Below are positions 1 through 54,803 of a stretch of DNA of 64,000 nucleotides, one piece after another. Numbering within the stretch: position 1 is the stretch's first letter; each line of letters begins with the position of its first letter. The stretch lies in contig MPCU01000012.1 of NCBI GenBank assembly GCA_001874305.1, forward strand, positions 69,525 to 133,524, read 5' to 3'. The notes under the pieces were generated by a model. That model saw only the letters and a program-made list of their open reading frames with translations, made no database searches and was not told the origin of the DNA. The translations under genes were made by a program, and so were the position numbers. The DNA is from Bacteriovorax sp. MedPE-SWde. GTDB lineage: Bacteria > Bdellovibrionota > Bacteriovoracia > Bacteriovoracales > Bacteriovoracaceae.

Positions 1-1214
1 GGCTCATCTATTCTTGTAATTGGAACATTTGTTGGAATTACAATTACACTAAGCTTATAGATCTTTTGAAATTCTTCTGCTTCTGTATCTGCAGTACCAG
101 TCATCCCTGCAAGAGTTCCATAAAGCTTGAAGTAGTTTTGAAATGTAATTGAGGCCAGAGTTTGGTTCTCTGATTTAATCTCAACACCTTCTTTTGCTTC
201 TATTGATTGGTGAAGTCCATCAGACCAACGAGAACCTGTTTTAAGTCTTCCTGTAAATTCATCAACGATGATGACTTCACCTTCTTTGATTACATAGTCT
301 ACATCAAACTTAAATAAGTGATGAGCTCTTAGGGCCTGGTTTAAGTGGTGAAGAATTTCTGTGTTCTCTATAGCGTAGAGATTATCTACTTTCATTATCT
401 CTTGTACTTTTAGAATCCCTTCTTCTGTAAAAATTGCAGATTTAGATTTTTCATCAATAGTAAAATGCTTTACGTCAGTTAGTTGAGGAATTACTTTATT
501 TGCTACGTGATATAGTTCAGAATCTCCTTCACTAGGACCTGAGATTAATAGAGGAGTTCTTGCCTCATCAATTAGAATCGAGTCAACCTCATCGACAATA
601 CAGTAGTGAAAGTCTCTTTGAACATAGTCGTCTAAAGAGAACTTCATATTGTCTCTTAAGTAATCAAAGGCAAACTCATTATTTGTTCCGTATGTAATAT
701 CTGCTTTATAAGCATTCATACGGTCTTCATCTTCCATATCTGCAACAATACAACCAGCAGTCATTCCTAACCAGTTATAAAGTACGCCCATTTCTTCGGC
801 ATCACGAGATGCAAGATAGTCGTTTACTGTAACTAGGTGAGCACCCTTTCCTTCAAGTGCTTTTAAGTAAAGTGCTAGCGTTGCAGTTAGTGTCTTACCT
901 TCACCTGTTTTCATTTCGGCAATAATACCTCTGTAAAGAACGATACCACCTACAATTTGAACATCGTAATGTCTCATTCCAAGTGATCTTACCGAGGCCT
1001 CTCTAACTGTAGCGAAGGCTTCCGGCAGGATTGATTCAAGGTTTGTTCCATCTTGGATCATCTTTTTAAACTTTGGAGTCTGGGCCTTAAGTTCTTCATC
1101 ACTAAGTTTTTGCATCATCGGTTCAAAAGAATTGATCTTTTTAACTATGGGTTGCAATTTTTTAATATCTCTTGCGTGTTTTGTTCCAAAAAATGACTTG
1201 AATGGGTTGTACAT
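1..1214 (-). CDS. secA: Preprotein translocase subunit SecA (N-terminal part; runs off window start)
   Basis: Not in ORF track; hand translation from ATG at 1214 (AGGAGA upstream): [22 protein letters not shown]..., with MKTGEGKT Walker [22 protein letters not shown] and [19 protein letters not shown] motifs. Confidence 0.97.
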
Positions 1215-1228
1215 ATATTCTCCTAAAT

Positions 1229-2308
1229 TTAATCTAAAATATAATAAAGTGGGTCAACAGGTGTTCCATTAACTCTCACTTCATAGTGAAGGTGTGGTCC
1301 AGTAGATAGACCGGAGTTTCCAACTTTTGCTATAAGTTGACCTCGTTTTATTTTTTGTCCTTTCTTTACTAGGTTCTTTGAGTTGTGGGCATAGAGTGTT
1401 TCAACTCCATAGCCATGGTCGATTTCGATATACCAACCAAAACCAGGCGTTTTTCCTGAAATCTTTATTACTCCATCTGCTGGAGCAAGGATAACAGTTC
1501 CAATTGGTGCACCGACATCAAGACCTTCATGCATTTTTACTCTATTAGAGTAGTGACTGGATCTTGGTCCATAATATGAAGTAATCCAACCTCTGGCCGG
1601 GATTAGTGTTGGGGTAGATCTAAGAAATGATTCTCTATCAAGTAAGTATTGATCTAGCTCATTTACTTTTACTTCTAGGGAACTTGAGATTTGTCTTAGT
1701 AGAGCAAAGCGATAATCAAAATGAGCAAAACTCTTTGCGAGCTTAAAACTTTGCTTAATTAGGTTGTTCCACTTTTTTGTATAACTATACCCTGTAATCA
1801 AACCAAAGTTTGTAGCTATCTTTCTTTCATAGAGGTCTTTTATTTCTTGGTATTTTTCTAACGATTCAATTTCTTCATTAGGTTTTCTGACTTTAAGAAT
1901 AAGGTCATTTTCGATAGGAAGACTAACCGAGTTTGGGTTTCTCTTAATATCTTTCTTTATATTTTTATTTTCTTTTGTTGGTGCTGTAAGATCACTATTT
2001 TCAAAACCAGTAATGACTCTTAGTTTTCTTTCAAACTGCTGAACCCTTTCGATGTCATCGGTTAATGTATTAAGTTTCATATTAAAGAGTTGTATCTGCT
2101 CTTTAAGCTGCCTGTTCTCAATACTTAAATGTCTATTTTCATAAACCTGTCTAAGAATTTTAATATAATCGTAACTAAGGATACCAACAACTGAGACAAC
2201 AATGAGTACTAAGAAGATAAAACTATTAAATAGTACTCTCGGTATACGAAATGATTTTACTCCCTTTTCTTTTTCAGGGATTACCATGATTGTGTAAAAA
2301 CGACTCAA
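1229..2308 (-). CDS. M23 family metallopeptidase with N-terminal TM and coiled coil
   Basis: HEGLD, YAHN and GPHLHYEV motifs at C-terminus; N-terminal hydrophobic helix. Confidence 0.92.
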
Positions 2309-2393
2309 AGTGTTATTCTCCGGCTGGAACAGTATTCTAAGATAACAGTCTAGTTATCTTATCAGGCGTTTGCAACCTAAAATCAGAAACTTA

Positions 2394-3143
2394 TTACTGC
2401 ATAGCAGCTATTATTATGGAGATATTGTCTTGACCACCATTCTCATTGGCCTGCCTAACTAATGTTTGTAAACAGTCTCTAATTGATGAGAAGCTGACTT
2501 CATTCTTTTCGAGTAATGTTTTTTTAATAAGGTAGAGAATATCTTCATCAGAAACTTTACCGTGAAGTCCATCGGAGCAGAGCATAAAGAAATCACCTTT
2601 CTTGGGCTTATAAGAAAAGATGTCGACTTCAATATCTGCGTCATACCCAACTGTTCTTGAAAGTACGTTCTTGTGTGGGTCGTCCGCACCTTGAGTTCGA
2701 GTATAGATTCCCATATTTATCTTTTCTTGAACCATAGAGTGGTCTCTAGTGAGTTGATAAATTTGTTGGTTATTTATTATGTAGGCCCTTGAGTCTCCAA
2801 CATTACCAATCGCGACATTGTCTTTTCCGAATAGAATTGAAACAACAGTTGTTCCCATTCCATTTAAACTTACATCCGCATCGGCAAAGTCTTTAATCGA
2901 TTTATTTGCAAAGAGTATGGCCTCTTTTAATGACTTCCCTGGGGTACCTTCATAGTTCTTAGCTGTCTTCATAAATTCAGACATATGTTTAACGGCCATC
3001 GTTGAAGCAAGATCACCACCAGAGTGTCCACCCATTCCATCAGCAACAACGTAAAATCGTGTTGAGTTACTAACATAGATCGAATCTTGATTAGTTTCTC
3101 TCTTTCTTCCAATGTCACTTATTCCGGCGCAAATAACTTCCAT
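2394..3143 (-). CDS. PP2C-family Ser/Thr protein phosphatase (Stp1/PrpC-like)
   Basis: RETNQDS, VADGMGGH, GMGTT, GDSRAY, LCSDGL and GGQDNIS motifs. Confidence 0.95.
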   Translation of the reverse strand: MEVICAGISDIGRKRETNQDSIYVSNSTRFYVVADGMGGHSGGDLASTMAVKHMSEFMKTAKNYEGTPGKSLKEAILFANKSIKDFADADVSLNGMGTTVVSILFGKDNVAIGNVGDSRAYIINNQQIYQLTRDHSMVQEKINMGIYTRTQGADDPHKNVLSRTVGYDADIEVDIFSYKPKKGDFFMLCSDGLHGKVSDEDILYLIKKTLLEKNEVSFSSIRDCLQTLVRQANENGGQDNISIIIAAMQ

Positions 3144-3353
3144 GAATTCTCCATAAAGGCAATATTAATTGTATGTATATTTTCAAAAGACACATGATTT
3201 TTGTCAATTGAGCAAAATCTCCTTACCTGAGTAAAATGGTGCCATTATGAACCTTGTAAAAACCTCTAGATAGAGCATCTTTTTTCTTCTTTAAAAGTCA
3301 TAGCGGTGTATAATTAAATTAGATAATGGACTACTCAAGGACGGGAGAGCTTC

Positions 3354-5414
3354 ATGAGCAAAATTGATATGCAAGAATTCATCGGTGAAAACTACAAAGT
3401 AGAAGATTTCGCCCATCTAAACTGGTCAGGATCTTTTCAAGATTACATTGACTTAATTTCAGAAGATCCAAGAGTTGCAAGAAATTCTTTTCAAAGAATT
3501 TATGACATGATTATGTCTTTTGGAACAAGCACTTACAATGAGTACAAGAAAGAAATTACGCGTTACCACTTTTTTGATGATCCTATCGAGAATGGTAAAG
3601 ATGCGGTATTTGGAATAGATGTACACTTAATGAAGCTTGTTAATTTTTTTAAAGCTGCAGCATTAGGCTATGGTACAGAAAAGAGGGTACTACTTTTACA
3701 TGGGCCTGTTGGTTCTGCTAAGTCTTCTATTTCGAGAAACCTAAAAAAAGGTCTTGAGCATTATGCAAAAACTGATGAAGGTGCTCTCTATACATTTGAG
3801 TGGTACGATTCTGAAGAAACAGATATTTTAGGTGGACAAAAACTATTTCCATCTCCAATGCATGAAGATCCTTTAAAGCTAGTTCCTGTTGAAGTTAGAA
3901 AGTCTTTTCTTGCTGCTTTAAATAAAGGAAATAAGGCCGACTATAAATTAAAAATTCGTGGAGAAGTTTGTCCTGCTGATAGATATATTTTAAAAGAATA
4001 TATGAGAAAGTATGACGGTGATTTCATGAAGGTTATGGAAAATCATATTAGAGTTAAAAGACTTGTTCTAAGTGAAAAAGATAGAATGGGGATTGGTACT
4101 TTCCAACCAAAAGATGAAAAGAACCAAGATTCAACAGAACTTACTGGTGATATCAACTACAGAAAGATTGCTCAGTATGGATCAGACTCTGACCCTAGGG
4201 CCTTTAACTTTGATGGAGAATTTAATATCGCCAACAGAGGAATCATTGAGTTTATAGAAATGTTAAAGCTTGATGTAGCGTTCTTATATGATCTTTTAGG
4301 TGCATCTCAGGAACAATCAATTAAGCCTAAGAAATTCGCTCAAACAGATATTGATCTTGTTATTCTTGGTCATACAAATGAGCCTGAGTTTAGAAAGCTT
4401 CAAAATAATGAATTTATGGAGGCCTTAAGAGATAGAACTGTTAAGATCGATGTTCCATATATTACAAGACTTGATAATGAAGTAAGAATTTATCAAAGAG
4501 ATTTTAACGCTGAAAAAATACCGCATGTACATATTGCACCTCATACTCTTGAAATGGCGGCAATGTGGGCAGTATTAACGAGAATGGAAGAACCAAAGAA
4601 GGCCGATTTAACATCTCTTCAAAAGTTAAAACTTTATAACGGTAAAACTCTTTCTGGTTATAACGAAGACAATGTTAAAGAACTAAGAAAAGAAGCTGTT
4701 AGAGAAGGTTTAGAAGGTATCTCTCCAAGATATATTCAAGACAAGATTTCAAATGCCTTAGTTAAATATGGTCACTCTGGATCACTTAATCCTTTCATGA
4801 TTTTTAACGAATTAGAATCTGGATTAAAGCATCACTCTCTAGTGAATTCTGCTGAAGGTTTAGATCGTTATAAAGAATTGCTTGCAGTTGTAAGACAAGA
4901 GTATACTGACATTGTTAAAAATGATGTGCAAAAAGCCATCTCTCTTGATGAAACTGCAATTGAAACTCTTTGTGCTAATTATATTGATAATGTAAAGGCC
5001 TACACTCAAAAAGAAAAAGTTAGAAATAAGTATACAGGTAAATTAGAAGAGTCTGATGAGCGTTTCATGAGAAGTATCGAAGAAAAAATCGATATTGCAG
5101 AATCTCGTAAAGACGACTTTAGACGTGAGATAATGAACTATATCGGTGCTCTTGCAATTGATGGAAAGCAGTTCGATTATAAGATGAATGAAAGACTTCA
5201 TCGTGCTCTAGAGTTAAAGCTTTTTGAAGACCAAAAAGATGCAATCAAGTTAACAACAATTATTTCAAATGTTGTTGATAAGGAAACTCAAGAGAAGATC
5301 GATATTATTAAATCTCGTCTTATCAAGAACTATGGTTACTGTGAAATTTCAGCAACTGATGCTTTAAACTATGTTGCAAGTATTTTTGCAAAAGGTGATA
5401 GTGCTAAGTCGTAA
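3354..5414 (+). CDS. prkA: PrkA/YeaG-family AAA+ serine protein kinase
   Basis: Walker [15 protein letters not shown]-like segment, [19 protein letters not shown]; followed by yeaH and spoVR. Confidence 0.95.
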
Positions 5415-5459
5415 GACTTAGTACTACATATTAGTTCTAGCTTGTGTAGGGGAGGATGA

Positions 5460-6575
5460 ATGGATCATCCAATAAAAAGAGACCACGCAAGGTTTCGAAA
5501 AATTATCAAAGGTAAAGTCAGAGACAATCTCAAAAAATATGTTTCTCGTGGAGAAATGCCTATTCCCAAGGGAAATGGTGAGTTTAAAGTTCCAATGCCT
5601 TCCATTAATACACCTCAGTTTCGTTTTGGTGATAAGAGCCAGGGGGGCTCTGGACAAGGTGAAGGACAACCTGGGGATCCTGTTGATGGACAACCTGGAG
5701 AAGGACAACCTGGTGAAGGTGAAGCGGGTCAAGATGAAGGCGCAAAAGAGCTTGAAGTTGATATGTCTCTTGATGAGCTCGCTTCCATTCTTGGTGATGA
5801 ATTAGAACTTCCAAAAATTGAACCTAAGGGTAAGAAGAATATGCAGTCCACTGTTGATAGATACACTAGTATCGGAACTGTTGGACCAGATTCTCTTAAA
5901 CATTACAAGAGGTCTTATAAGGAAGCTTTAAAGAGACAAGTTGCCATGGGGACTTATGACCCTAAGAACCCTGTGATTGTCCCTATTAAGAGCGATATGC
6001 GCTATAGAGCGTCTAACACAAAAATAGAATTTGAGAACTCTGCCGTTGTTATTTATATGATGGATGTTTCAGGATCTATGGGTGATGAGCAAAAAGAAAT
6101 AGTAAGAACTGAGTCTTTTTGGATTAACCTGTGGCTTAAATCTCAATATAAAGATATTGAAATTCGCTATATAATTCATGATGCCACTGCGAAGGAAGTA
6201 GAAGAAGAAACTTTTTTTAAAACACGTGAAAGTGGTGGAACTCTTATTTCTTCGGCACTAAAGCTTTGTAAAGAAATCATTCAAACTGATTATAACTCTG
6301 ATGAATGGAATATTTATCCTTTCCACTTTTCTGATGGTGATAATTGGTCAACTGAAGATACTAAACTCTGTCTTGATCTTCTAAAGAATGACATTATTCC
6401 AAACTCTAATGTTTTCTGTTATGGGCAAGTTGAAAGTCGCTACGGTTCTGGACAATTCTATAAAGATCTTAATGGTGTTTATGGTGAGGAGCATGACGAC
6501 GTTATTCTTAGCAAGATTAAGAACAAAGAAGCAATTCTTGATTCTATAAAAGACTTCCTTGGTAAAGGGAAGTAA
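5460..6575 (+). CDS. yeaH: YeaH/YhbH (DUF444) family protein with vWA-like C-terminus
   Basis: RDHARF N-terminus, Gly-rich GQPG linker, [16 protein letters not shown] and FSDGDNW motifs. Confidence 0.93.
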
Positions 6576-6587
6576 AAGGTACTTAAC

Positions 6588-8060
6588 ATGAAAAGAACTA
6601 AGCCGCTTACTGGAGAATTAGCAAAATTAAGAGATGAAGTTTATGGCTATGCTGTAGATTACGGACTTGATTTTCATCCAGTTATTTTTGAAGTGTGTGA
6701 TTACGATACTGTTTGTGTTTTGGCCGCTAATGGAGGTTTTCCTACGAGATATCCACATTGGCGATTTGGTATGGAATATGATCAGCTATCAAAGGGTAAT
6801 AAGTACGGTTTTCAAAAAATTTACGAACTAGTAATTAATACTGATCCTTGTTATGCATACCTATTGAGTTCTAATAGATATGTTGATCAGAAACTAGTAA
6901 TGGCCCATGTGTTTGGACACGCTGACTTTTTTAAAAATAATGCATGGTTTGCAAGTACAAATAAGAAAATGATGGACGTTATGGCCAATAGAGCGACAAA
7001 GATTCGTCGTTATATGGAAAAGTATGGTCATGATAAGGTAGAACAGTTTATTGATGTGGTTCTCTCTCTTGAGAACCTTCTTGATGTAAATGTTCTATTT
7101 GAAAATGAATATGAAAGTTCGATCCCTGATGAGCTTGAGCTAAAAGATGAAAGAAGTACTGCTCTTAAATCTTTTATGAGATCTAAAATTGGTAATGAAG
7201 AAGATCAAAACCCTAAACTTAATGAAGAAACGCCCCTTGATAAAATTGATGAGGCAGTAAAAGGTACAAGGGATATCATGAGTTTTCTTATGCAATATGC
7301 TCCCGTTGAAGACTGGCAAGCCGATATCATTGCAATATTAAGAGAAGAGGCCTATTACTTTTTACCTCAAAGAATGACTAAGATTATGAATGAGGGCTGG
7401 GCAAGTTATTGGCACTCTAAAATCCTTACTCAAAAGGCCCTTCGCTCTAGTGAGATAATCGACTTCGCAGACATTCACTCTGGTGTAATGGCCATGAGTC
7501 AAAAGAATATTAATCCATATAAGATTGGTATCGAACTCATGCGTGATATTGAATATCGTTGGGACACTGGACGCTTTGGTAAAGACTATCAAAACTGTAC
7601 AGATATGCAGGAGAAAGAGAATTGGTACAAAGAGACTAATCTTGGAAGAGAAAAAATCTTTGATGTTAGAAAGTCACATAATGATATTACCTTTATTGAT
7701 GAGTTCTTTACTCAGGAATTTTGCCAAAGGATGCAACTTTTTACTTATAAGTATAACCCTAGGACTGGACGTAACGAGATAGAGACTAGAGATTTTGAAA
7801 CTATAAAGAATAAGCTTTTACTACAATTAACTAACTTTGGTAGCCCTATTATAGAAGTAGAGTCGGCCAACTATCGAAACCGTGGAGAGTTACTCCTTAG
7901 ACATGTTCACCAAGGTGTCGACCTAGACCTTGCCCAGGCAACAGATACAATGATTAATATCCATAAAATCTGGAAGCGTCCTGTTTCTATCGTGACTGTT
8001 ATGGAAGAAAAAGAAATGACATATTGCTTCGATGGAAAATCGATTACAGAAGTTAAATAA
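6588..8060 (+). CDS. spoVR: SpoVR/YcgB family protein
   Basis: RYPHWRFG, IYELVIN, AHVFGHADFF, KIMNEGWASYWH and NPYKIG motifs. Confidence 0.95.
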   Translation: MKRTKPLTGELAKLRDEVYGYAVDYGLDFHPVIFEVCDYDTVCVLAANGGFPTRYPHWRFGMEYDQLSKGNKYGFQKIYELVINTDPCYAYLLSSNRYVDQKLVMAHVFGHADFFKNNAWFASTNKKMMDVMANRATKIRRYMEKYGHDKVEQFIDVVLSLENLLDVNVLFENEYESSIPDELELKDERSTALKSFMRSKIGNEEDQNPKLNEETPLDKIDEAVKGTRDIMSFLMQYAPVEDWQADIIAILREEAYYFLPQRMTKIMNEGWASYWHSKILTQKALRSSEIIDFADIHSGVMAMSQKNINPYKIGIELMRDIEYRWDTGRFGKDYQNCTDMQEKENWYKETNLGREKIFDVRKSHNDITFIDEFFTQEFCQRMQLFTYKYNPRTGRNEIETRDFETIKNKLLLQLTNFGSPIIEVESANYRNRGELLLRHVHQGVDLDLAQATDTMINIHKIWKRPVSIVTVMEEKEMTYCFDGKSITEVK

Positions 8061-8061
8061 T

Positions 8062-8082
8062 AAAGGACCGCAAGGTCCTTTT
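8062..8082 (+). terminator. Intrinsic terminator of prkA-yeaH-spoVR
   Basis: AAAGGACC-GCAA-GGTCCTTTT immediately after the spoVR stop. Confidence 0.8.
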
Positions 8083-8143
8083 CCACGTTGACCACATTAG
8101 AATTTTGTATGAAAATTAATATATTAAATACAAAAGGTTCTAA

Positions 8144-14590: not shown

Positions 14591-14617
14591 AAAAGGCTCC
14601 GAAAGGAGCCTTTTTTT
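14591..14617. terminator. Bidirectional intrinsic terminator (rpsO / TetR)
   Basis: AAAAGGCTCC-GAAA-GGAGCCTTTTTTT. Confidence 0.9.
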
Positions 14618-16186: not shown

Positions 16187-18490
16187 ATGTTAAACAACAG
16201 AAAAGAGTACAAGTACAACTTTGGTGGTAAAGAAATTACTATCGAAACAGGTCGTATGGCGAAGCAAGCTGATGGTTCAGTTCTTGTTTCTTCAGGTGGA
16301 ACGCAAGTTCTAGTTACAGTATGTTCAGCAACTAAAATGAAAGACGGTCAAGACTTCTTTCCACTTCTAGTTGAATACACTGAAAAGTTTTATTCAGCAG
16401 GGAAGTTCCTTGGTGGATTCATGAAAAGAGAAGGTAGACCATCTACTGGTGAAACTCTTAATGCGCGTCTAATTGATAGACCATTAAGACCATTATTCCC
16501 AAGTGGATATATGTTTGACACTGTAGTTTCTTGTACAGTTATGTCTTACGGTGAAGAGGGAGATCCTGAAGTTCTTGCTCTAATTGGTGCTTCAGCAGCA
16601 CTAACAATTTCTGATATCCCATTTGAAGGGCCAATCGGTTCTTGTAAAGTTGGTAGAATCGGTGGTGAATTTGTAATCAATCCATCACATTCTCAGTGGG
16701 AAGAGTCAGATCTTGAAATCGCTGTAGCGGCAAGTGAAGATGCAATCCTTATGGTTGAAGGTGAAGCAGCTGTAGTTCCAGAGAAAGATGTTCTTGAAGC
16801 AATCTTCTTTGGACACGATCAAATCAAAGGTCTTGTAAAATTCCTAAAAGATATTCAAAGTGAAATTGGTGTTGAAAAGAGAGTATTTATTCCTGAAACT
16901 CCAAATGAAAAACTTATGTCTACAGTAAAAGAGAAGTTCACTGCTCCAGCAAGAGAAGTTCTAAAAATTACTGATAAAATTCTTAGACAAAAAGCTACTA
17001 AGTTAATGGAAGCTGATGTTGCAACTGCAATGAAGGAAGCTCCTGCTGACTTTGGTCTTGATGATTCTGCATCTTTTGGAAAAGAAGCATACGGTGGTGT
17101 TGATGAACTAATGTATGAACTTCTAAGAGGTGACTTACTAGATCATGACAAGCGTATTGCTGATAGAGCTCTTGATAAAGTTAGAGCAATCGAAACAGAA
17201 ACAGATATCCTTACAACTCCACACGGTTCATCTATCTTTACAAGAGGTGAAACTCAAGTTGTAGCAACAGTTACTCTTGGTGGTAAAACTGGAACTCAAA
17301 TGAGTGACAGAATTAGTGGTAAGACTGAGCAATCATTCTACCTACACTATAACTTTCCTCCATTCTCTGTTGGTGAAGCAAGAGGTGTTAGAGGTGTTGG
17401 ACGTCGTGAATTAGGTCACGGTAATCTTGCAGAAAGAGCTATTAAAGCAGTTGTTCCAACTGACTTCCCATATACAACTAGAGTAGTTTGTGAAGTTTTA
17501 GAATCTAACGGTTCTTCTTCAATGGGTTCTGTATGTTCTGGTTCAATGGCACTTATGGATGCTGGTGTTCCTTTAACTGCTCCAGTTGCAGGTATTGCAA
17601 TGGGACTAGTTACAGATGGTGAAAGATTTAAAATCCTTACAGATATTCTAGGTGATGAAGATCACTTAGGTGATATGGACTTTAAAGTTGCAGGTACTGC
17701 TGATGGTATTACTGCTATTCAAATGGACATTAAGATTACAGGTCTTACTCGTGAGATCGTTGAAGCATCTATGGCACAAGCTAGAGATGGTCGTCTTCAT
17801 ATCCTTGAAGAGATGGCAAAGACTATTTCTTCTCATAGAGGAGCAATGAAAGACGGTGTACCTGTTATGAAGTCTATGCAAATTCCAACTGACAAAATTG
17901 GAGCTCTTATTGGTCCTGGTGGAAAGAACATCAAGAAACTTCAAGAGAACTACGAGCTTGTTATTGAAATTGAAGAAGATGGAACTGCTAAGTTTATCTC
18001 TACTAACCAAGAAAAAATTGGTCTATGTATGGAACTAGTTGCTCTTCAATTAAGCGGTCCAGAAGTTGGAAAAGTTTATGAAGCGACTGTAGCAACAATT
18101 AAAGAATATGGTGCATTCGTAGATATCGCTGACGGTGTTGGTGGTCTTGTACATATTTCTGAAATAGCTGATGAAAGAGTACGTGATGCTGGAGACTATG
18201 TTTCTGAAGGTGACGTAGTAAAAGTTAAGGTTCTTGAAATCGATAGAATGGGAAGAGTTAAGCTTTCTGCAAAAGCAGCAGCTACTCTTAAGAGAAAAGA
18301 TGGAAAAGATCCTGCAGAAGTAGAAGCAGAATTTAAAAAGAGTAATCCTAACGCTGACAAGCCTAGAGAAGATAGACCATCAAGAGGTGGTAGAAACGAT
18401 AGAGGTGGCGATAGAAATAGAGGACCAAGAAAGCCAAGAGAAGACAGAGCTCCAAGATCTGAAAAGAAAGAGGAATCTAGTGAGTCTTAA
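16187..18490 (+). CDS. pnp: Polyribonucleotide nucleotidyltransferase with basic RGG-rich C-terminal tail
   Basis: Two RNase PH domains (RRELGHG, LESNGSSSM, GDEDHLGDMDFK), KH (IGALIGPGGKNIK) and S1 domains. Confidence 0.98.
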   Translation: MLNNRKEYKYNFGGKEITIETGRMAKQADGSVLVSSGGTQVLVTVCSATKMKDGQDFFPLLVEYTEKFYSAGKFLGGFMKREGRPSTGETLNARLIDRPLRPLFPSGYMFDTVVSCTVMSYGEEGDPEVLALIGASAALTISDIPFEGPIGSCKVGRIGGEFVINPSHSQWEESDLEIAVAASEDAILMVEGEAAVVPEKDVLEAIFFGHDQIKGLVKFLKDIQSEIGVEKRVFIPETPNEKLMSTVKEKFTAPAREVLKITDKILRQKATKLMEADVATAMKEAPADFGLDDSASFGKEAYGGVDELMYELLRGDLLDHDKRIADRALDKVRAIETETDILTTPHGSSIFTRGETQVVATVTLGGKTGTQMSDRISGKTEQSFYLHYNFPPFSVGEARGVRGVGRRELGHGNLAERAIKAVVPTDFPYTTRVVCEVLESNGSSSMGSVCSGSMALMDAGVPLTAPVAGIAMGLVTDGERFKILTDILGDEDHLGDMDFKVAGTADGITAIQMDIKITGLTREIVEASMAQARDGRLHILEEMAKTISSHRGAMKDGVPVMKSMQIPTDKIGALIGPGGKNIKKLQENYELVIEIEEDGTAKFISTNQEKIGLCMELVALQLSGPEVGKVYEATVATIKEYGAFVDIADGVGGLVHISEIADERVRDAGDYVSEGDVVKVKVLEIDRMGRVKLSAKAAATLKRKDGKDPAEVEAEFKKSNPNADKPREDRPSRGGRNDRGGDRNRGPRKPREDRAPRSEKKEESSES

Positions 18491-22201: not shown

Positions 22202-22223
22202 AAAGGCCCAGTTAAGGGCCTTT
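22202..22223 (-). terminator. Intrinsic terminator of phnDCE
   Basis: On minus strand AAAGGCCC-TTAACT-GGGCC followed by a 9-T run. Confidence 0.85.
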
Positions 22224-39282: not shown

Positions 39283-39978
39283 TCAGACAAAAAGTTCTGG
39301 TTTAGTTAGTACTTGTGGGTCTTGAGTTATCGCTCGACCTATAACAAGGTAGTCTGCTCCTTGGTCAAATGCCTGAGAAGGTGTCATCACTCTCTGTTGA
39401 TCATTATCATTCGTTGTTGCAAACTTGATTCCAGGGCATACTTTAAGTGGAGTATTCTTGTCGTTCTTATCGAGATGCTGGGCGACTTCAAGTTCGTGGG
39501 CAGATGAAACTATTCCATCGATATGAGTATTCAGTGCAATTTTATATAGGTTCTTAAATACTTCTTCAGAAGAGTTGGCCCATATGTCATTACAGTCTGA
39601 TTGATCCAGAGATGTTAGTACGCTAACTCCAAGAATCTTACAATTTTTTATATAGTTGTCCCTCGCTCGAAGAGCTTCTCTAACCATACTATTTCCTCCC
39701 GAGAGGTGAATCGTGAGAAACTTTATGGGGAGACCTTCTAGTGATCTAATTGATTTGTACACAGTGGATGGGATGTCATGAAGTTTTAAATCTAGGAAAA
39801 TTTCAACTTTATATTTTTGGGCGATGGCCAAAATGTATTCTCTACCATAGCGATAAAAAAGCTCCATTCCTATTTTTACTATTGAAATATCACTTGAGTA
39901 TTCATTTAGGAATGTATCTACCTCTTTCTTATCCATATTATCAAGAGCGACAATTACTCTCTTTCTATTATCAGACAT
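39283..39978 (-). CDS. pyrF: Orotidine-5'-phosphate decarboxylase
   Basis: VALD, FLDLKLHDIPST, CPGI, DQQRVMTP, VIGRAIT. Confidence 0.96.
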   Translation of the reverse strand: MSDNRKRVIVALDNMDKKEVDTFLNEYSSDISIVKIGMELFYRYGREYILAIAQKYKVEIFLDLKLHDIPSTVYKSIRSLEGLPIKFLTIHLSGGNSMVREALRARDNYIKNCKILGVSVLTSLDQSDCNDIWANSSEEVFKNLYKIALNTHIDGIVSSAHELEVAQHLDKNDKNTPLKVCPGIKFATTNDNDQQRVMTPSQAFDQGADYLVIGRAITQDPQVLTKPELFV

Positions 39979-42900
39979 TTGTTATTCCTTGTAGGTTTAC
40001 TGGTAACATCTCTGATTCATGATATGAAACTAAGCTATCTAAAATGGCCTTGATATTCTCTTCTCTTGTAAAACAAGGTGCTCCGTATTGGATTGCTGCG
40101 TTTCGTATATGTTCACCATCTGATTTTGATGTTCCCATATTTAGAGGAGTATTTAGAACCATTATTAGCTCATCGTCTTTGATGGCATCCTGCATGGCCA
40201 GACCATTTTGATCGCCATGGAATTTAGCAACTAGTGTACACTCGAAACCTTTTGACTTGATAAAGTCATAATTTCCCTTCGTTGCCATAAACCTAATTCC
40301 AATCTTAGAAAGTGATTCTAGGTAGTCAGTCATTATGTCCTTACTTCTATTTGCTAGAGAAATTAGGACTTTTCCTTTTTCAGATATTCTTGGATAATTT
40401 CCTAAATATGATTTAAACATGGCCATCTTTAAGTCTTTATCGATACCTAATGTTTCTCCTGTTGACCTCATCTTCGGACCTAGAATTATGCTGTCATCGA
40501 TATATCTATCAAATGGGAATGTCGATTGTTTGACCACATAGTGTGAAGATTTAATTTCCTTAATAGGTTTTATCTCTTGTCCTAAAAGCGCCTTTGTTGC
40601 TTCTCCTGGAAGATTTACATTTGATGCTTTACTTAGAAATGGTAGGGTTCTTGAACCTCTAGGATTGGCCTCTATACAATAAATATCTTCTCCTTTTACT
40701 GCAAATTGAAAGTTTATTGGACCGACTATTTCCATTTCGTTAGAGAGTTTTATTGCTATCTCTCGCATTCTTGCAACAATTTCTTTTGCAGTATGGACTG
40801 GAGGACTGACCATACCTGAGTCTCCAGAGTGAACTCCAGCATGTTCTATATGTTCACAAATCGTAAAGATTGTATTTCCTTTATTATCTCTAACAAGATC
40901 CACATCAAACTCTAGTGCATTTTCAATATAGTTCTCTACTTGAAAAACAACCTGAGAGTTGTTGAGTCCTTCTTTTATAGACTCGGGTAGTTCTTCAATA
41001 TCTTTATGATCACGGAAGATATACATACTTTCACCGCCAATCACATAGCTTGGACGGATGATTACCGGAAGCCCTATTTCTGTAATTGAGCTAATGAGTT
41101 GTTTATGACCTCTTATCTCTCTTGATTCAGTTCTCTTTAAAGGAGCTGATCTTGTTAGTCTATCAAATCTCTTTCTATCTTCCACAAGATCTAAGATATC
41201 AAGTGTCGGTCCATAAAAATTAAAGTCATGATGATCTCTTCTAAAGTCAGCTTCCAGGTGGGCCCTTATATTGATACCCGTTTGACCACTAAAAGATGTG
41301 ATGACGCCACTTGGGTCTTCAAACCTTAATATATCAAAGAGGTCTTCAGAAAAAAGTGGAGTTAAGTAAAGTCTATCGGAGCTGTCATAGTCAGTACTTA
41401 CAGTTTCAGGATTGGAGTTAAGCATTATACTTTTCTTACCCTGTGTATTTAGTAACTGGCAGGCCTTTACACATGAATAATCAAATTCAATTCCTTGTCC
41501 TATTCTATTTGGCCCAGATCCAAATATCGCTACGGCCTTTTCACCCTGACTGTTGATAGGTGTTACTTCTTGTATATCTGCATATGTACTATAGTAATAT
41601 GGCGTTGTTGCTGCGAATTCTCCAGAGCATGTATCCACTGCTTTAAATACTGGATGTATGTCTAATTCAAATCTCTTATCTAGTATTGTCCTTAGTCCTT
41701 GGTTTGTTAAAAGAGCTAAGTATTTATCGGAGAAACCATTGTACTTGTAATTTATAAATGTATCTCTATTTTCAAGAAGGTTTTGATTTGTACTTAAAGC
41801 TTGCTCCATTTTATAAAAGAGATTCATTTGATCTACAAACCAAGGAGTGATTTTTGTTATTTCACAAATCTCTTGAGTTGTTATTCCCTGTCTTAGAGCT
41901 ACAAGAGTAGTGAGTAGGGATAATTCTCTGGCAGAGCTAAGCCTTTCTCTTATATATTCAGTATCAATTGAAAATGGAGTTGTTTTCAGCTGAGTTAAAT
42001 CTGGTATTTCTAGACCTTGTTCAGTTGATCGCAAGGCCTTCATAAAGGCCTCGTTAAAGCTTCCCCCAAGAGCGAGAACTTCACCTACGGATCTCATTGA
42101 TGGACCTAACGTCTGTGAGGAAGATGGGAACTTATTAAAAGGAAATACAGGGATCTTTACAGCAACATAATCTAATGTCGGCTCAAATGCCACTGGTGAG
42201 ACTTTTGTAATATCATTCATTATTTCAAAGAGTGACATTCCAAGGGCAAGTCCTGCTGAAATTTTTGCAATTGGATATCCTGTCGCCTTAGAGGCAAGTG
42301 CTGATGATCTTGATACCCTAGGGTTCATTTCAATTACTACTATATCATCTTCATTAGCTGGATTGATGGCGAATTGTACATTGGCCCCACCTGCTACAAC
42401 ATTCATATGCTTAGCTATTGTTAAAGACATTGTTCTTAGTTGCTGATAAGCACGATCTGAAATTGTCTGTGCCGGCGCAACAGTTATTGAGTCTCCAGTG
42501 TGGATTCCACATGGGTCGACGTTTTCAATAGAGCAGATGACAACACCATTTCTATTCTTATCAACCATGACTTCTAGTTCGACTTCTTTCCACCCAAGGA
42601 GTGATTTCTCCATTGTGATAGGGTATTTAATATCACTGGTGTTAAGAATATCGAGTAGTTCCGCTTCATTGTATATTAGTGCCGCACCTTTACCTCCTAG
42701 GGCAAAGTCACGTCTAATAATTAATGGGAAAGCGACACTTGAGTGGGCCAGATCAATTGCTTCTTTTTCACTCTGTGCTTGAAACCTCTTTCCCGACTTG
42801 TAGCCAAGCTTCTTCATTTCTTGTGCAAATAATTCTCGATCTTCTGTTTTGTTAATTGTGTCTACATTTGCTCCTAGAAGCTGAACTCCTTGTGAAGCAA

Positions 42901-44434
42901 GATAGTTTTCCTCTTCAAGTTCAATACACATATTTAAGGCCGTCTGTCCGCCCATTGTTGATAGAACAGCATCAACTTTCTCTGTCTCAATAATCTTCTT
43001 AATGACTTCTTTTGTTATTGGCTCGATATAGGTTTTATAACTCATATCTTTATCAGTCATTATCGTTGCAGGGTTAGAGTTGAGTAAGACAACGTCTATA
43101 CCAAGTTCTTTGAGGGACTTTAGCGCCTGTGTTCCAGAGTAATCAAACTCTGATGCTTGACCAATTTTAATTGGTCCCGATCCTATTAGTAGAATCTTAG
43201 ATATTTTAGTATCAAGTTTTCCTTGGTGATAATCAGGGATCGCCGAAATATCTGAAGCGCTGTTGGCCTGTGACTTTCCTTCGAGAAAATCTTGAATTTC
43301 TGTAAAGAATATTGCTCCATCAAGAGGTCCTGGATTGGCCTCTGGGTGAAATTGAACAGATCTTACGCGGTTGTTATAACTTCTCATTCCTTCAAGAGAT
43401 CTATCAAAGAGTGAAGTAAACTCAATATAGAGACCTAGATCATATGGTGCGGACTTTGCTACCTCGTCAAAGGAAGGAGTGGAGATTGCATAGCCGTGGT
43501 TTTGACTTGTGATAAGTAGATCTTGTGTCTTGTGGTCAAAGACTGGATGGTTTGCACCCCTTTGTCCAAATGGAAGTTTTATAATATCCATACCCATAGC
43601 AAGACCAAGGAGTTGATGTCCTAGGCATATACCACGTATTGGAATATCTGTATCTAAGAGTTCTTTTACAATCTCTACCTGCTGTGAGTAATCTCTTGGG
43701 TCTCCTGGACCATTAGAGAGAAATACCATTTTTGGGTTATATGTTTTAATTATTTCTGCAGTTGTATTATAAGGAACTGTAACTAATGGATGACCGAGCT
43801 TTTTTAGTGAGTCGGTAATTGACTTCTTAACGCCATAGTTTACAAGTACTATTGGGTTTTCGCCTTTGGTAACTATTTCGATCTTGTCTTGAGTGACTTT
43901 CTCTAATTTACTGCAGTGGACTTTGTTTTTTGTAAACTCTGTTGCTGCTGGAGCTTTTTCATGAGCTGTGATGGCACTGATATGATTCTTAGATGTACCA
44001 GAAAGATAGAGAGTAAGTGCTCTGGTATCAATTCCAGATATTAGAGGTGTCTCTATGTCTTTAAAGTATTTATTATAAGAAAAGTTTCTTGCGATGATTG
44101 ATGTCCCATGACACTTTTGAGATTGTGAGACTCTTTCATCGTACTCGTAATTTCCTACATGGGCAGTAGTAAATATGATGTGTTGGCCTAAGAAGGAAGG
44201 ATCAGTTGCGGTTTCTTGATAGCCTGACATTCCTGTTGTAAAGGCCGATTCTCCCCAAATCTCACCGTCAAAGCTAGGTTTGTTAATATATCCTTTAAAG
44301 GAAGTGCCGTCTTGAAAATGTATAAATATGGGGGTTTGTTTAAGGGAATTTGAAAAGGATACTTCATCACTGATATGGTTACTACTACAATTATCTCCAA
44401 CACTATTTAGTATTGAGGCGTGAGTTTCCTGCAC
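39971..44434 (-). CDS. carAB: Fused carbamoyl-phosphate synthase small + large subunit
   Basis: GATase (GYQE..TDPS, GICLGHQ, QFHPE) in frame with two ATP-grasp halves (GSGPIKIGQASEFDYSG; GSGPNRIGQGIEFDY) and an MGS domain; GTG start after AGGAG. Confidence 0.95.
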   Translation of the reverse strand: MQETHASILNSVGDNCSSNHISDEVSFSNSLKQTPIFIHFQDGTSFKGYINKPSFDGEIWGESAFTTGMSGYQETATDPSFLGQHIIFTTAHVGNYEYDERVSQSQKCHGTSIIARNFSYNKYFKDIETPLISGIDTRALTLYLSGTSKNHISAITAHEKAPAATEFTKNKVHCSKLEKVTQDKIEIVTKGENPIVLVNYGVKKSITDSLKKLGHPLVTVPYNTTAEIIKTYNPKMVFLSNGPGDPRDYSQQVEIVKELLDTDIPIRGICLGHQLLGLAMGMDIIKLPFGQRGANHPVFDHKTQDLLITSQNHGYAISTPSFDEVAKSAPYDLGLYIEFTSLFDRSLEGMRSYNNRVRSVQFHPEANPGPLDGAIFFTEIQDFLEGKSQANSASDISAIPDYHQGKLDTKISKILLIGSGPIKIGQASEFDYSGTQALKSLKELGIDVVLLNSNPATIMTDKDMSYKTYIEPITKEVIKKIIETEKVDAVLSTMGGQTALNMCIELEEENYLASQGVQLLGANVDTINKTEDRELFAQEMKKLGYKSGKRFQAQSEKEAIDLAHSSVAFPLIIRRDFALGGKGAALIYNEAELLDILNTSDIKYPITMEKSLLGWKEVELEVMVDKNRNGVVICSIENVDPCGIHTGDSITVAPAQTISDRAYQQLRTMSLTIAKHMNVVAGGANVQFAINPANEDDIVVIEMNPRVSRSSALASKATGYPIAKISAGLALGMSLFEIMNDITKVSPVAFEPTLDYVAVKIPVFPFNKFPSSSQTLGPSMRSVGEVLALGGSFNEAFMKALRSTEQGLEIPDLTQLKTTPFSIDTEYIRERLSSARELSLLTTLVALRQGITTQEICEITKITPWFVDQMNLFYKMEQALSTNQNLLENRDTFINYKYNGFSDKYLALLTNQGLRTILDKRFELDIHPVFKAVDTCSGEFAATTPYYYSTYADIQEVTPINSQGEKAVAIFGSGPNRIGQGIEFDYSCVKACQLLNTQGKKSIMLNSNPETVSTDYDSSDRLYLTPLFSEDLFDILRFEDPSGVITSFSGQTGINIRAHLEADFRRDHHDFNFYGPTLDILDLVEDRKRFDRLTRSAPLKRTESREIRGHKQLISSITEIGLPVIIRPSYVIGGESMYIFRDHKDIEELPESIKEGLNNSQVVFQVENYIENALEFDVDLVRDNKGNTIFTICEHIEHAGVHSGDSGMVSPPVHTAKEIVARMREIAIKLSNEMEIVGPINFQFAVKGEDIYCIEANPRGSRTLPFLSKASNVNLPGEATKALLGQEIKPIKEIKSSHYVVKQSTFPFDRYIDDSIILGPKMRSTGETLGIDKDLKMAMFKSYLGNYPRISEKGKVLISLANRSKDIMTDYLESLSKIGIRFMATKGNYDFIKSKGFECTLVAKFHGDQNGLAMQDAIKDDELIMVLNTPLNMGTSKSDGEHIRNAAIQYGAPCFTREENIKAILDSLVSYHESEMLPVNLQGITNV

Positions 44435-45404
44435 AAATATCTCCTGGTACTTTATTATAGATTGATCCGATTTTTTGGTCTTCGTTTGTTATCATGGCCT
44501 CTATTATCGCCATTCTCATATATACTGAATTTCTTACTTGCTCGTGTGCCATCCATATTTCAGAGTCTACGATCTCTTGAGATACTTCAACACCTATATT
44601 CGCAGGCCCTGGATGATAGATAGGTAAGGACTTTTCATTCTTTCTCAGCTTTTCAAAATCAATCCCCCACGAGTCTTTATATGAGGTAAGGGTGTCTTCA
44701 AAACCTTTAGTATGTCTTTCAGATTGGATTCTTAGTAAATACAGAGCATCTGACATCTTTATCGTTTCATCAATATCATTTGAGACTTGAAACTTATTTG
44801 TTTCATCTTCTATATTTTGTGGAATAAATTCCTTTGGTCCGCTTAGAATCACATTGATTCCAAATTGTGGAAGGAGATCCATTAATGAGTGAGTCACTCT
44901 AGAGTGGCGACAGTCTCCAACAATTGCGACTGTTTTGCCTTTTAAGCTCTCTACTCCTCCAAACTGTTCGCTTAATGTATATAAGTCTAGTAGCGCTTGA
45001 GTAGGGTGTTGGTTTGAGCCATCTCCACCGTTTATTATCTTAATGGGTGGATGCTCTTTAAATTCATCAAGTAAATGAGACTGCTTTGTTCGAATTATAC
45101 AAATATCAATTCCCTGATAATGTAGAGTCAAAAGTGTCTGCTCAAGAGATTCACCTTTTTTAAGTGATGAGTTCTCTGCTTGGAAATCTATATGAAAACC
45201 TTGGAGCCTTTTAATGGCCATGGCAAATGAATGTTTTGTTCTTGTTGAATGTTCTAAAAATGATGTTGCGACTGCTAGAGATTTTTGAAGGGGGAGTCTG
45301 GCCGGTGAGCCGGATTTTAAATCTTCGGCCCTTTCAAGGAGCTGTAGAATATGACCCTTTTTAAGGTCTTTGATTCCTTCAAGAATCGAGGGAAAACCAA
45401 CCAT
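44403..45404 (-). CDS. pyrB: Aspartate carbamoyltransferase catalytic subunit
   Basis: STRTKHSF, NGGDGSNQHPTQALLD, VGDCRHSRV, HPGP. Confidence 0.95.
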   Translation of the reverse strand: MVGFPSILEGIKDLKKGHILQLLERAEDLKSGSPARLPLQKSLAVATSFLEHSTRTKHSFAMAIKRLQGFHIDFQAENSSLKKGESLEQTLLTLHYQGIDICIIRTKQSHLLDEFKEHPPIKIINGGDGSNQHPTQALLDLYTLSEQFGGVESLKGKTVAIVGDCRHSRVTHSLMDLLPQFGINVILSGPKEFIPQNIEDETNKFQVSNDIDETIKMSDALYLLRIQSERHTKGFEDTLTSYKDSWGIDFEKLRKNEKSLPIYHPGPANIGVEVSQEIVDSEIWMAHEQVRNSVYMRMAIIEAMITNEDQKIGSIYNKVPGDICAGNSRLNTK

Positions 45405-53521: not shown

Positions 53522-54652
53522 CTATTTAGAACATCTGATTTTGTGGTTCTTTAGGGATTTATTCCATCTCTTGCAGAACTTTGAAGCACTTTTAAATTTT
53601 AAATCTCTAAAATCTCTTTTAATATGTGCTTGGTAGCTTGCAATAACCCCTGTTCTATAATTAGGTTTTATTTTATCTAACTCACTTAGAAAGGCATCCC
53701 AAAATACCTTTGAATTCTTTGCTTCGTCATTCTCTAAATATGCTAGTGATATATAATAGAGGCTTGGAAGGTAGTATAGTTTATGATCAAAGATTCTTTT
53801 GTCGTCTAAGATTCTTCTAAAACCTTGGATAGAGTTTTTGATATTCATTTCTTTCAAGCTTAGAGTCGCTATCATTTGTATATCTAGCATATCTGAAAGG
53901 TATTTCATGTCTTCAATCTCTTTGTTTTCTTTAGCATTAAGTTTGTCTATGACGGCCTCAGCAGTTCTCTCTATTCCTGATTGAAGATAATTAAAAACTC
54001 CTTCAAATAGAATTTCACTAAAATGTTTTCCCGGAAGTTTTTCTTGTAACTTTAGCCTCGCTTCTTTTATTTTATTCTGTCTTAAATATATCCTCGTAGT
54101 TGCGGCCGATCTCATTGGACCAAACCATTGTTCTCCAACTGTCATGAGGCCAAAGAATGCTTTAAATCTATAATCGTTAATCATTTTAATAAGGTCGTTT
54201 ATTCGTTTCTTCCTTTTTGGAGTTTCTTTTAAGTTTGATAGGGCATGTGCTTCTAGTTCCCACATCATTATTCCTATAATATATTTTCCTCTATTTTCTG
54301 ACTCTTGGGCCTCTTTTAATAGCTTTTCGTTTTGATTTGTCTCTAGGAAGTACGCACTTCTTTGATTATGAAGAATATGGAATTGGTCCTTACCGCTTGA
54401 CTCATCTTGTAGAGCGTCGAAGCATTCGTTGAGCTTATCAAACTCGTACCTGTAAAGTAGACTTAGACAAAGATAGACAAGCGTCTCTTGACTACCATCT
54501 TTATAGGTATCATATGAATCTAAAAATAAGGCCTCTGATGCTTTGGGGTAACCTGAGTGGGTCTTCTTTAACATTTTCATGTCTAAGGTTGCACAAGATG
54601 TCATAACGAAGTTAAGCACTAGAAAAGTTATTCCATAAAAACCATTTCTCAT
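53522..54652 (-). CDS. Helical-repeat hypothetical lipoprotein
   Basis: Lipobox MTSC; TPR-like helices. Confidence 0.65.
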   Translation of the reverse strand: MRNGFYGITFLVLNFVMTSCATLDMKMLKKTHSGYPKASEALFLDSYDTYKDGSQETLVYLCLSLLYRYEFDKLNECFDALQDESSGKDQFHILHNQRSAYFLETNQNEKLLKEAQESENRGKYIIGIMMWELEAHALSNLKETPKRKKRINDLIKMINDYRFKAFFGLMTVGEQWFGPMRSAATTRIYLRQNKIKEARLKLQEKLPGKHFSEILFEGVFNYLQSGIERTAEAVIDKLNAKENKEIEDMKYLSDMLDIQMIATLSLKEMNIKNSIQGFRRILDDKRIFDHKLYYLPSLYYISLAYLENDEAKNSKVFWDAFLSELDKIKPNYRTGVIASYQAHIKRDFRDLKFKSASKFCKRWNKSLKNHKIRCSK

Positions 54653-54779: not shown

Positions 54780-54803
54780 AGGCCCTCTTTTTTTTGAGGG
54801 CCT
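54780..54803 (-). terminator. Intrinsic terminator of idh
   Basis: Minus strand AGGCCCTC-A8-GAGGGCC followed by an 8-T run. Confidence 0.85.

Follow-up and report, generated by a model that had tools for sequence, protein, structure and literature searches.

What process fills a bacterial genome of 36% GC with the word GGCC, at the expense of GGCT and AGCC? This question is raised by a 64,000-nucleotide stretch of Bacteriovorax sp. MedPE-SWde, a member of the Bdellovibrionota (GenBank assembly GCA_001874305.1, contig MPCU01000012.1, positions 69,525 to 133,524), referred to here in its whole length as the window. The window carries a compositional footprint along its full extent (1-64000, not bound to a strand) and encodes an orphan DNA (cytosine-5) methyltransferase at 58675-59826 on the minus strand. 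An earlier note on this DNA had read the word counts of positions 1-8100 as the trace of a resident GGCC-directed methylation combined with biased T:G repair, possibly acting at the outer C. The present analysis points, with moderate confidence, to a very-short-patch-type repair system, similar to Dcm/Vsr of E. coli, operating at GGCC.

Word statistics and codon-level anatomy of the GGCC footprint

Recounting positions 1-8100 reproduced the tallies of the earlier note, with 22 GGCC against 8.1 expected from base composition (about 22 and about 8 in the note), 9 + 8 = 17 occurrences of GGCT and AGCC against 29.4 expected (about 17 and about 28), and a GC content of 35.6% (about 35% assumed). 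GGTC and GACC together number 15 and AGCT 10 in positions 1-3000, as estimated. The GGCC excess is real, but the first 8,100 nucleotides are not special, the signal running through the entire window. GGCC occurs 190 times in 64 kb against 66 expected from base composition, an approximately 2.9-fold excess, and is evenly spread, with 7 to 18 sites in every 4-kb bin. An order-2 Markov model puts GGCC at the top of all tetranucleotides (190 vs 86, z = +14.1, 2.2-fold) and GGCT/AGCC at the bottom (62 vs 145, z = -9.6, 0.43-fold), with GGTC/GACC (z = +1.1) and CCGG (z = +0.2) being ordinary. When synonymous codons are shuffled gene by gene, with both protein sequence and codon usage retained, 65.7 ± 6.6 GGCC are expected in coding DNA against 169 observed (z = +15.7), with z-scores of -7.1 for AGCC and -4.0 for GGCT. 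Neither the trinucleotide nor the codon correction brings the GGCC score near zero, the outcome that the earlier note had named as fatal to its reading. Across a control set of 80 loci taken from other bacteria, the median observed/expected ratio of GGCC is 0.93 (range 0.57-1.59); the ratio of the window, 2.21, is the maximum, and second place is held by its closest relative in that set.

The codon-level arrangement of the signal is highly regular. The frame xxG|GCC contains 129 of the 169 coding GGCC, compared with 4 occurrences of xxG|GCT and 8 of xxA|GCC. The remark of the earlier note that alanine is often GCC after a G-ending codon is borne out, with GCC 129, GCT 4, GCA 57, and GCG 32 in this context; after an A-ending codon GCC and GCT stand at 8:95, and after a C- or T-ending codon the C fraction is about 0.26. 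A single four-letter context shifts the alanine ratio GCC/(GCC+GCT) from 8% to 97%, with G|GCT purged to 3%, and no comparable context effect was seen in other codon families of the window coding sequence. The mirror position behaves in the same manner: before GCC, two-fold R-ending codons end in A 4 times and in G 72 times; before GCT the counts are 50 for A and 3 for G, and before GCA they are 81 for A and 22 for G. Where both outer letters are synonymous, nearly all states are G...C or A...T. The total of GGCY remains roughly constant as GGCT and AGCC are purged and GGCC builds up, indicating a T-to-C (A-to-G) shift and no general liking for GGC.

The same drive is found away from alanine codons and outside genes. 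Pooled tests compared 380 kb of footprint-positive loci with footprint-negative Bdellovibrionota of similar GC. Leucine following Gly-GGC is encoded by CTR 48 times and TTR 10 times, against 2157:3529 elsewhere (odds ratio (OR) 7.9, p = 5e-12), and the OR rises to 12.5 when other NGC codons serve as the comparison; it is 1.0 in the footprint-negative loci. In strictly intergenic DNA, defined as 12.1 kb outside all open reading frames (ORFs) of at least 70 codons in six frames, the C fraction is 0.75 after GGC and 0.42 after YGC (OR 4.1, p = 2e-8), with an OR of 0.8 for the same test in footprint-negative loci. Translational codon-pair selection for NNG-GCC could explain why 129 of the 169 coding sites share one frame and why the effect is strongest at alanine, yet it accounts neither for the leucine first positions nor for the intergenic DNA; the drive is also absent in related genomes of similar GC, and other codon families are unaffected. 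Restriction avoidance of GGCT/AGCC fares no better. The Gly GGC fraction peaks (0.188) where the next codon begins with T, so that GGCT is tolerated wherever its T cannot change silently; this excludes word avoidance of the restriction type and identifies a mutation or repair bias. We consider both explanations effectively refuted, retaining for them hardly any probability.

The inner positions of the word are not driven. Glycine codons of the pooled loci have nearly the same ratio GGC/(GGC+GGT) before C (0.41) as before T (0.39), and the inner-G test, xGG|CCx against xGA|CCx, gives an OR of 2.15 compared with 1.6 in footprint-negative relatives. The drive is DNA-level, word-specific, strand-symmetric, and confined to transitions at the outer positions. 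These tests also bear on positive selection for GGCC as a functional signal, be it a methyl mark separating self from prey or a nucleoid- or uptake-related motif, which would agree with the conservation of the methyltransferase as a core gene in a lineage of predators, with the even spread of sites, and with an effect stronger in genes than in intergenic DNA. Such selection should use every synonymous route, whereas GGT|C is not favoured to become GGC|C (0.41 vs 0.39 before T) and the route from xGA|CCx to xGG|CCx is barely above controls. The advantage per site would be minute for a four-letter word occurring about every 340 bp, and yet G|GCT is almost eliminated. We therefore give selection for the word a low probability.

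Several other candidates and word anomalies were set aside. A repeat element or longer motif was rejected, as no 5- or 6-mer is outstanding and all 16 flank combinations are populated. The enrichment of AGCT (z = +3.9) is a normalisation side-effect, A|GCT being no more frequent than C|GCT or T|GCT. The excess of GGTG/CACC (+6.7) is restricted to the coding strand, where GGTG occurs 229 times against 183 under the synonymous shuffle (z = +5.5) and CACC has z = -1.1, and it is distinct from the symmetric GGCC signal. The depletion of AACC/GGTT (-5.5) vanishes on the same shuffle; both of these anomalies are coding effects.

The orphan methyltransferase and its neighbourhood

The methyltransferase was located by a motif scan followed by Pfam and NCBIfam searches. 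It comprises 383 amino acids counted from Met15 (PF00145, 1.7e-72; TIGR00675, 2.6e-64), within an ORF that reaches 59868, and covers positions 2-324 of the 324 in the PF00145 profile. Motifs I (FSGAGG), IV (PCQGFS), VI (ENV), IX, and X (GNAVPP) of the cytosine-5 (C5) methyltransferases are intact, the translation showing FSGAGG, PCQGFS, ENVTGL, RYLTQREAAKVQSFP, and GNAVPP. The target recognition domain (TRD) occupies approximately residues 189-314 of the long ORF (nt 58927-59304); in a set of 1.84 billion representative proteins it has just 32 matches, all of them uncharacterised. An AlphaFold2 (AF2) model has a mean confidence (pLDDT) of 87.6, and its best structural matches are all C5-methyltransferases.

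Specificity could not be read from homology or structure. Alignments to M.HaeIII (1DCT/3UBT) or 3g7u are limited to the catalytic core (M.HaeIII, E = 2.7e-37, residues 21-196 and 315-363), the relatives of the TRD are uncharacterised, and the structural comparison does not discriminate; a further PDB match, 8yf3, is a phage carboxymethyltransferase and was discarded as a guide. The enzyme does not group with HaeIII-like, inner-C methyltransferases, as its TRD is unaligned, no structural preference appears, and GGTC/GACC are undepleted. Nor does it resemble the methylase of a type II restriction-modification (R-M) system, since no recognisable cognate restriction gene adjoins it and GGCC is enriched, not avoided. 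The resident GGCC-directed methylase of the earlier note has a candidate counterpart in an intact, conserved C5-methyltransferase, but one whose TRD is neither HaeIII-like nor similar to that of any characterised enzyme. GGCC is proposed as its target from the footprint and by elimination, being the only strong strand-symmetric anomaly suited to a long-resident 5-methylcytosine (m5C) enzyme, and the window methyltransferase probably marks this word.

The gene behaves as a core gene of its family. The matches listed include over 120 clusters of orthologs, at 60-86% identity, whose source names are Halobacteriovorax (including H. marinus SJ), Bacteriovorax, Bacteriovoracaceae, and Halobacteriovoraceae, with one exception, a metagenome-assembled genome named 'bacterium'. 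Across relatives the methyltransferase retains 71-86% identity, compared with 48-65% for the neighbouring Ppx-like protein and 30-74% for mnmA. Comparison of lineages about 4% apart gives 11-18 synonymous differences in its gene and none that is non-synonymous, the latter value being read with the caveat that the loci compared had been retrieved through identical protein sequence.

Its surroundings are of a housekeeping nature, in the order M28 peptidase, mnmA, a 210-residue ORF, methyltransferase, and a Ppx/GppA-like gene, with a glycosyltransferase also neighbouring. The Ppx/GppA-like gene (57663-58694, minus strand; PF02541, 5.7e-22) overlaps the 3' end of the methyltransferase with its start by 20 nt, and this adjacency is kept in all relatives carrying the methyltransferase. 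As a Vsr analogue it was rejected, since it is also present in Bdellovibrio and enterobacteria lacking the footprint. Orthologs of the methyltransferase and of the Ppx-like gene place the window in Halobacteriovorax/Bacteriovorax (Bacteriovoracaceae), and a Leptospira origin, hinted at by weak and misleading Lsa33/LipL45 matches, was rejected. The 210-residue ORF (59894-60526, minus strand), directly upstream of the methyltransferase, has no Pfam, NCBIfam, or PDB match, and its single-sequence AF2 model (pLDDT 51) is unusable. It occurs in two relatives, L081 (56% identity) and L085 (25%), and is absent from L082-L084, which have the strongest footprints; it is therefore not needed for the footprint, and a role as repair nuclease finds no support.

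Two mnmA-like tRNA 2-thiouridylase paralogs lie a few kilobases apart, one adjoining the methyltransferase (60636-61865, plus strand) and one past the window end (5593-6747 of contig L166). The former has no match to the middle domain PF20259, which the other paralog has, and differs by 10.7% at the nucleotide level between strains whose genome divergence is about 4%.

A proposed repair mechanism weighed against relatives and rivals

In the mechanism proposed, the orphan methyltransferase at 58675-59826 would methylate GGCC at the outer cytosine (GGC-m5C), and a context-specific activity encoded elsewhere in the genome would correct GGC(T:G) mismatches to C:G. Besides deaminated m5C, this activity would also 'repair' T:G pairs at genuine GGCT/AGCC sites arising from replication errors or recombination heteroduplexes, so that GGCT and AGCC would be ratcheted into GGCC wherever the change is tolerated. 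We infer all three of its components, namely GGCC recognition by the methyltransferase, methylation of the outer C, and the existence of a T:G-specific nuclease or glycosylase. The outer C is taken as the methylated and corrected base because GGCT/AGCC are depleted and GGTC/GACC are not. The genome statistics have the form typical of very short patch repair, with the target word enriched and its T-variant and complement depleted, in coding and non-coding DNA alike. Very short patch repair is described mechanistically and is the established process that gives this kind of pattern (PMC2715241). Every sequence-level prediction tested for the combination of GGCC methylation and outer-C T:G repair, as put forward by the earlier note, agreed with the data; no T:G repair gene was found in the sequence searched. 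The reading of the earlier note is partly supported, is the best of those considered, and gains strength from the methyltransferase encoded in the window. Bhagwat and McClelland, in a paper cited by PMC4687349, reportedly proposed in 1992 that short-patch repair has consequences for oligonucleotide abundance.

The distribution of the footprint among relatives was followed in 80 loci fetched across the Bdellovibrionota and beyond, with the Ppx-like gene as a handle. All 15 loci with a syntenic methyltransferase ortholog show it, at log2 OR of 3.5-8.1 and with G|GCC:G|GCT counts such as 73:0, 65:1, and 57:3. Loci of Bdellovibrio, Pseudobdellovibrionaceae, and enterobacteria range from about -1.4 to +0.8 on the same scale. 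Most Bacteriovoracaceae loci have GGCC as the first-ranked of 136 words; GGTC/GACC are always near zero. The footprint is a trait of Halobacteriovorax/Bacteriovoracaceae that is absent from Bdellovibrio, although three loci labelled Bacteriovoracaceae or Halobacteriovoraceae (L112, L157, L158) are neutral. One further locus, L137, avoids GGCC, which is there the lowest of 136 words (14 vs 29).

A 373-kb marine-metagenome contig contains the identical sequence of the window, and there are strains at 99.4%, 99.0%, and 96% identity. In an alignment of ten strain contigs (21 kb), GGCC outer positions differ about as often as other synonymous C/G positions, at 6/42 against 38/245 and 4/34 against 93/527, and 2 of the 6 differences at the outer C are transitions. 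With about 40 sites this underpowered alignment presents no sign of hypermutability or freezing at GGCC.

Several observations weigh against the proposed mechanism. One is the lack of a repair gene in the sequence searched. Neither Vsr (PF03852) nor a recognisable T:G glycosylase was found in the window by Pfam and NCBIfam searches of ORFs of at least 100 aa, nor was a Vsr or T:G repair gene found about 10 kb past each window end on its own contig (about 84 kb in total), and 3.6 Mb of fetched loci yielded no Vsr by phmmer or by a hidden Markov model purpose-built from 75 Vsr genes. The search for vsr that the earlier note had suggested thus came back empty, both in about 84 kb of this genome and in the fetched clade loci; a vsr adjoins the methyltransferase in 0 of 15 relatives, and a Bdellovibrionales Vsr has its nearest relatives outside the clade, in unrelated systems with no footprint. 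The comparison of sister genomes gave a divided answer, as all 15 methyltransferase-bearing loci show the footprint but so do about 12 Bacteriovoracaceae loci with no methyltransferase at the syntenic site, where the gene may sit elsewhere in the genome. Phylogenetically, moreover, the co-occurrence of footprint and methyltransferase amounts to a single event. The TRD aligns to no solved or characterised enzyme, M.HaeIII included, and Foldseek does not single out M.HaeIII (TM-scores of 0.62-0.64, against 0.63-0.71 for other C5-methyltransferases). The GGCC methylases SuaI and M.Ssp6803II modify the inner C, and M.HaeIII likewise methylates the inner C. Among strains there is no C-to-T excess at the outer C, with 2 transitions at 42 sites compared with 23 at 245 four-fold C positions, an underpowered comparison. 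Finally, the strength of the drive is graded. The OR is about 87 for the third position of alanine codons, 8-12 for the first position of leucine codons, and about 4 for intergenic DNA, a gradation not expected from repair bias alone.

The weaker effect between genes may stem in part from constraint on GC-rich words there, such as those in terminator stems. Sequence inspection identified a terminator-like hairpin, GGCTCC-gaaa-GGAGCC, at 14595-14610 (no strand assigned), whose arms retain a GGCT/AGCC pair, one conversion alone being enough to break the pairing. Another, aaaaGGCCcagttaagGGCCttt at 22205-22220 (again found by inspection, no strand assigned), has GGCC in both arms, and a second GGCC-armed hairpin of similar kind lies at 54781-54802.

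Some of the same points would suit a mutation or repair bias that is specific to the context but has nothing to do with the window methyltransferase, whose target would then be another; examples are a sequence-preferring T:G glycosylase, a peculiarity of the polymerase or of mismatch repair (MMR) at GGCT, or another methyltransferase encoded elsewhere in the genome. The TRD that matches no characterised enzyme, the dozen or so positive loci with an empty syntenic site, the single evolutionary event behind the clade co-occurrence, and a contig (L178) with a same-TRD methyltransferase and no enrichment are all compatible with it. We judge this explanation unlikely, as no other strand-symmetric word anomaly fits a core m5C enzyme, every methyltransferase-bearing syntenic locus (15/15) has the footprint, and m5C-linked short-patch repair is the only well-established word-specific T-to-C mechanism that we know of (PMC2715241).

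The most interesting rival dispenses with a T:G-specific enzyme altogether. In the methyl-directed MMR ratchet of Elhai (2015), devised for the highly iterated palindromes (HIP) of cyanobacteria, errors that create a site are methylated, the new strand is taken as template, and the error is fixed, so that recognition sites accumulate. PMC4390886 ties over-abundant GC-rich palindromes to orphan methyltransferases and describes a 'palindromic end-state' of degenerate sites, which resembles the pattern of GGCC/AGCT versus GGCT/AGCC, and the lack of any Vsr in the sequence searched would be natural under it. The ratchet predicts gain from all one-step transition neighbours, however, whereas GGTC/GACC are undepleted (z = +1.1) and no drive is seen in the tests of the inner positions, and it requires an m5C-directed strand-discrimination nuclease that is hypothetical in PMC4390886. 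It therefore appears quite improbable here.

More distant enzymes with the same TRD, at 39-52% identity, are found on three kinds of contig. GGCC is enriched on L180 (82 vs 43; G|GCC:G|GCT 55:5) and on L181/L182, although for L180 and L181 this may simply reflect membership of the same clade. On L178 (GC 27%) the same-TRD methyltransferase is accompanied by no enrichment (GGCC 1 vs 7; G|GCC:G|GCT 0:19), a pattern consistent with methylation lacking a repair partner; L137 and L178 are a possible natural contrast between a methylase with and one without such a partner. The phage-like contigs L179 (Mu-type portal, capsid) and L183/L184 (terminase-like) encode methyltransferases of 329-331 aa with the TRD type of the window, and they avoid GGCC strongly (2 vs 28, 6 vs 35, and 4 vs 23). 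The proposal that this TRD family tracks GGCC anomalies in both directions was downgraded, as avoidance is common in control viral contigs: of 77 whose C5-methyltransferases lack this TRD, 25 (32%) avoid GGCC more than any other word or more than all words but one. Scans of a viral collection for phage methyltransferases found nothing.

On L181 (7959-10026) and L182 (2693-4760) a 484-aa same-TRD C5-methyltransferase is overlapped at its 3' end by 14 nt by a gene for a 208-aa DEDD (RNase T/DnaQ-like) exonuclease, a layout resembling dcm-vsr. The pair sits in a HipA/PIN/HTH context similar to a defence island, where GGCC is mildly enriched (z = +2.8), and the window contains no homolog of this exonuclease.

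Short-patch-type repair at GGCC can also be put in a more specific form, in which a core, vertically inherited outer-C (GGC-m5C) methyltransferase and an unrecognised, non-Vsr T:G-correcting partner would together have rewritten the synonymous choice at about 0.7% of codons throughout the family, and in which dense GGCC methyl marks might also help the predator to tell its own DNA from that of its prey. We advance this form only tentatively and regard it as possible though rather doubtful; the GGC-m5C specificity that is part of it would differ from that of the characterised GGCC methylases considered. Methylation of the outer C probably leaves HaeIII unblocked, so a positive digest would not speak against the model.

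The pnp exception, other features, and comparison with known systems

The footprint has an exception within the window in pnp (16187-18490, plus strand; TIGR03591, 2.7e-271). The earlier note had been able to find a single GGCC in this gene, and there is exactly one, at 16629. The gene contains no GGCT, GCC is used in 0 of 64 alanine codons, and alanine after G-ending codons is GCA 4 times and GCG once. This fits codon selection in a gene presumed to be highly expressed, by which non-preferred GCC is excluded while GGCT is still unstable. A separate observation concerns positions 17343-18009 within pnp, over which the depth of metagenome contigs is several-fold elevated (for example 102.8 vs about 5 in run X6) and at which many short contigs join; probably this conserved part of the gene recruits contigs of other organisms.

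The footprint appears to be among the cleanest sequence traces of short-patch-type biased repair outside E. coli. For Halobacteriovorax-like genomes, models of codon usage, codon pairs, and tetranucleotide binning are skewed by repair and not by translation. The pattern also predicts that methylation falls on the outer C of GGCC and that a T:G repair enzyme has yet to be found, and the gradation among related lineages from GGCC enriched to neutral or avoided offers a comparative system for finding the repair gene by phyletic pattern. In the B. marinus SJ genome paper (PMC3526173) we found mention of neither the bias nor DNA methylation, and full-text searches for Halobacteriovorax together with GGCC or patch repair turned up none either.

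Other features of the window stand apart from the footprint. A 1487-aa ORF (39971-44434, minus strand) between pyrF (39283-39978) and pyrB (44403-45404) joins the small-chain and glutamine amidotransferase domains with the full large-chain domains of carbamoyl-phosphate synthase, and looks like a CarA-CarB fusion within the pyrimidine operon. At 2394-8060 of this non-sporulating predator, a PrkA, YhbH (DUF444), and SpoVR trio has a divergently transcribed PP2C phosphatase of the Stp1 type and an M23 peptidase as neighbours. A 376-aa ORF with no family match (53522-54652, minus strand) is a strain-variable insertion between a gene of the isocitrate/isopropylmalate dehydrogenase family and a 159-aa ORF, being present in the lineage of the window (contigs L166, L167, L172, and L173) and missing in the 99.0% and 96% strains (L168-L171). 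No tRNA or Rfam match was found in the window.

Among known systems, a precedent for repair dedicated to this very word is the pairing of M.MthTI, a GGCC methyltransferase, with the T:G mismatch glycosylase Mig.MthI on the Methanothermobacter plasmid pFV1, reportedly described by Horst and Fritz in 1996. There, m5C methylation of GGCC is coupled to a dedicated non-Vsr enzyme of the helix-hairpin-helix (HhH) glycosylase type, so searches by Vsr homology would miss repair enzymes of this kind. The archaeal pair differs in being a plasmid-borne R-M system that methylates the inner C, and we know of no report of genome-wide GGCC enrichment in its host. The HaeIII-type methyltransferases (M.HaeIII, PDB 1DCT/3UBT) share the C5-methyltransferase catalytic core with the window enzyme; inner-C methylation as in M.HaeIII, however, would deplete GGTC/GACC, whereas here GGCT/AGCC are depleted.

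The cyanobacterial HIP1 and alternate HIPs (PMC4390886) offer a statistical likeness, combining an over-represented GC-rich palindrome and an orphan methyltransferase with one-off variants biased to the outer positions, and the over-representation of HIP is interpreted there as a by-product of repair and not as a function. HIP words are longer, at 6-8 nt, occur about once per kilobase, and belong to a different clade and methyltransferase family (PMC4390886). MMR directed by GmeC would moreover predict depletion of all neighbouring words, whereas GGTC/GACC are unaffected in the window.

The closest parallel is Dcm/Vsr of E. coli, likewise built on a chromosomal orphan C5-methyltransferase, with an enriched word, depleted T-variants, and altered oligonucleotide and codon statistics. 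The E. coli word is CCWGG, whereas the four-letter GGCC is concerned here, and the depleted variants imply the 3'-outer C; the methyltransferase of the window has a Ppx/GppA-like overlap in place of an overlapping or neighbouring vsr, and its TRD is unrelated. The host, a member of the Bdellovibrionota of low GC content, also has its choice between GCC and GCT almost fully controlled by the context. Applied to 50 kb of E. coli K-12, the same measure gives CCWGG at 57 vs 45, CTAGG at 1.5 vs 48, and CTTGG at 9.5 vs 48, and the footprint in the window is of a size comparable to this Dcm/Vsr benchmark.

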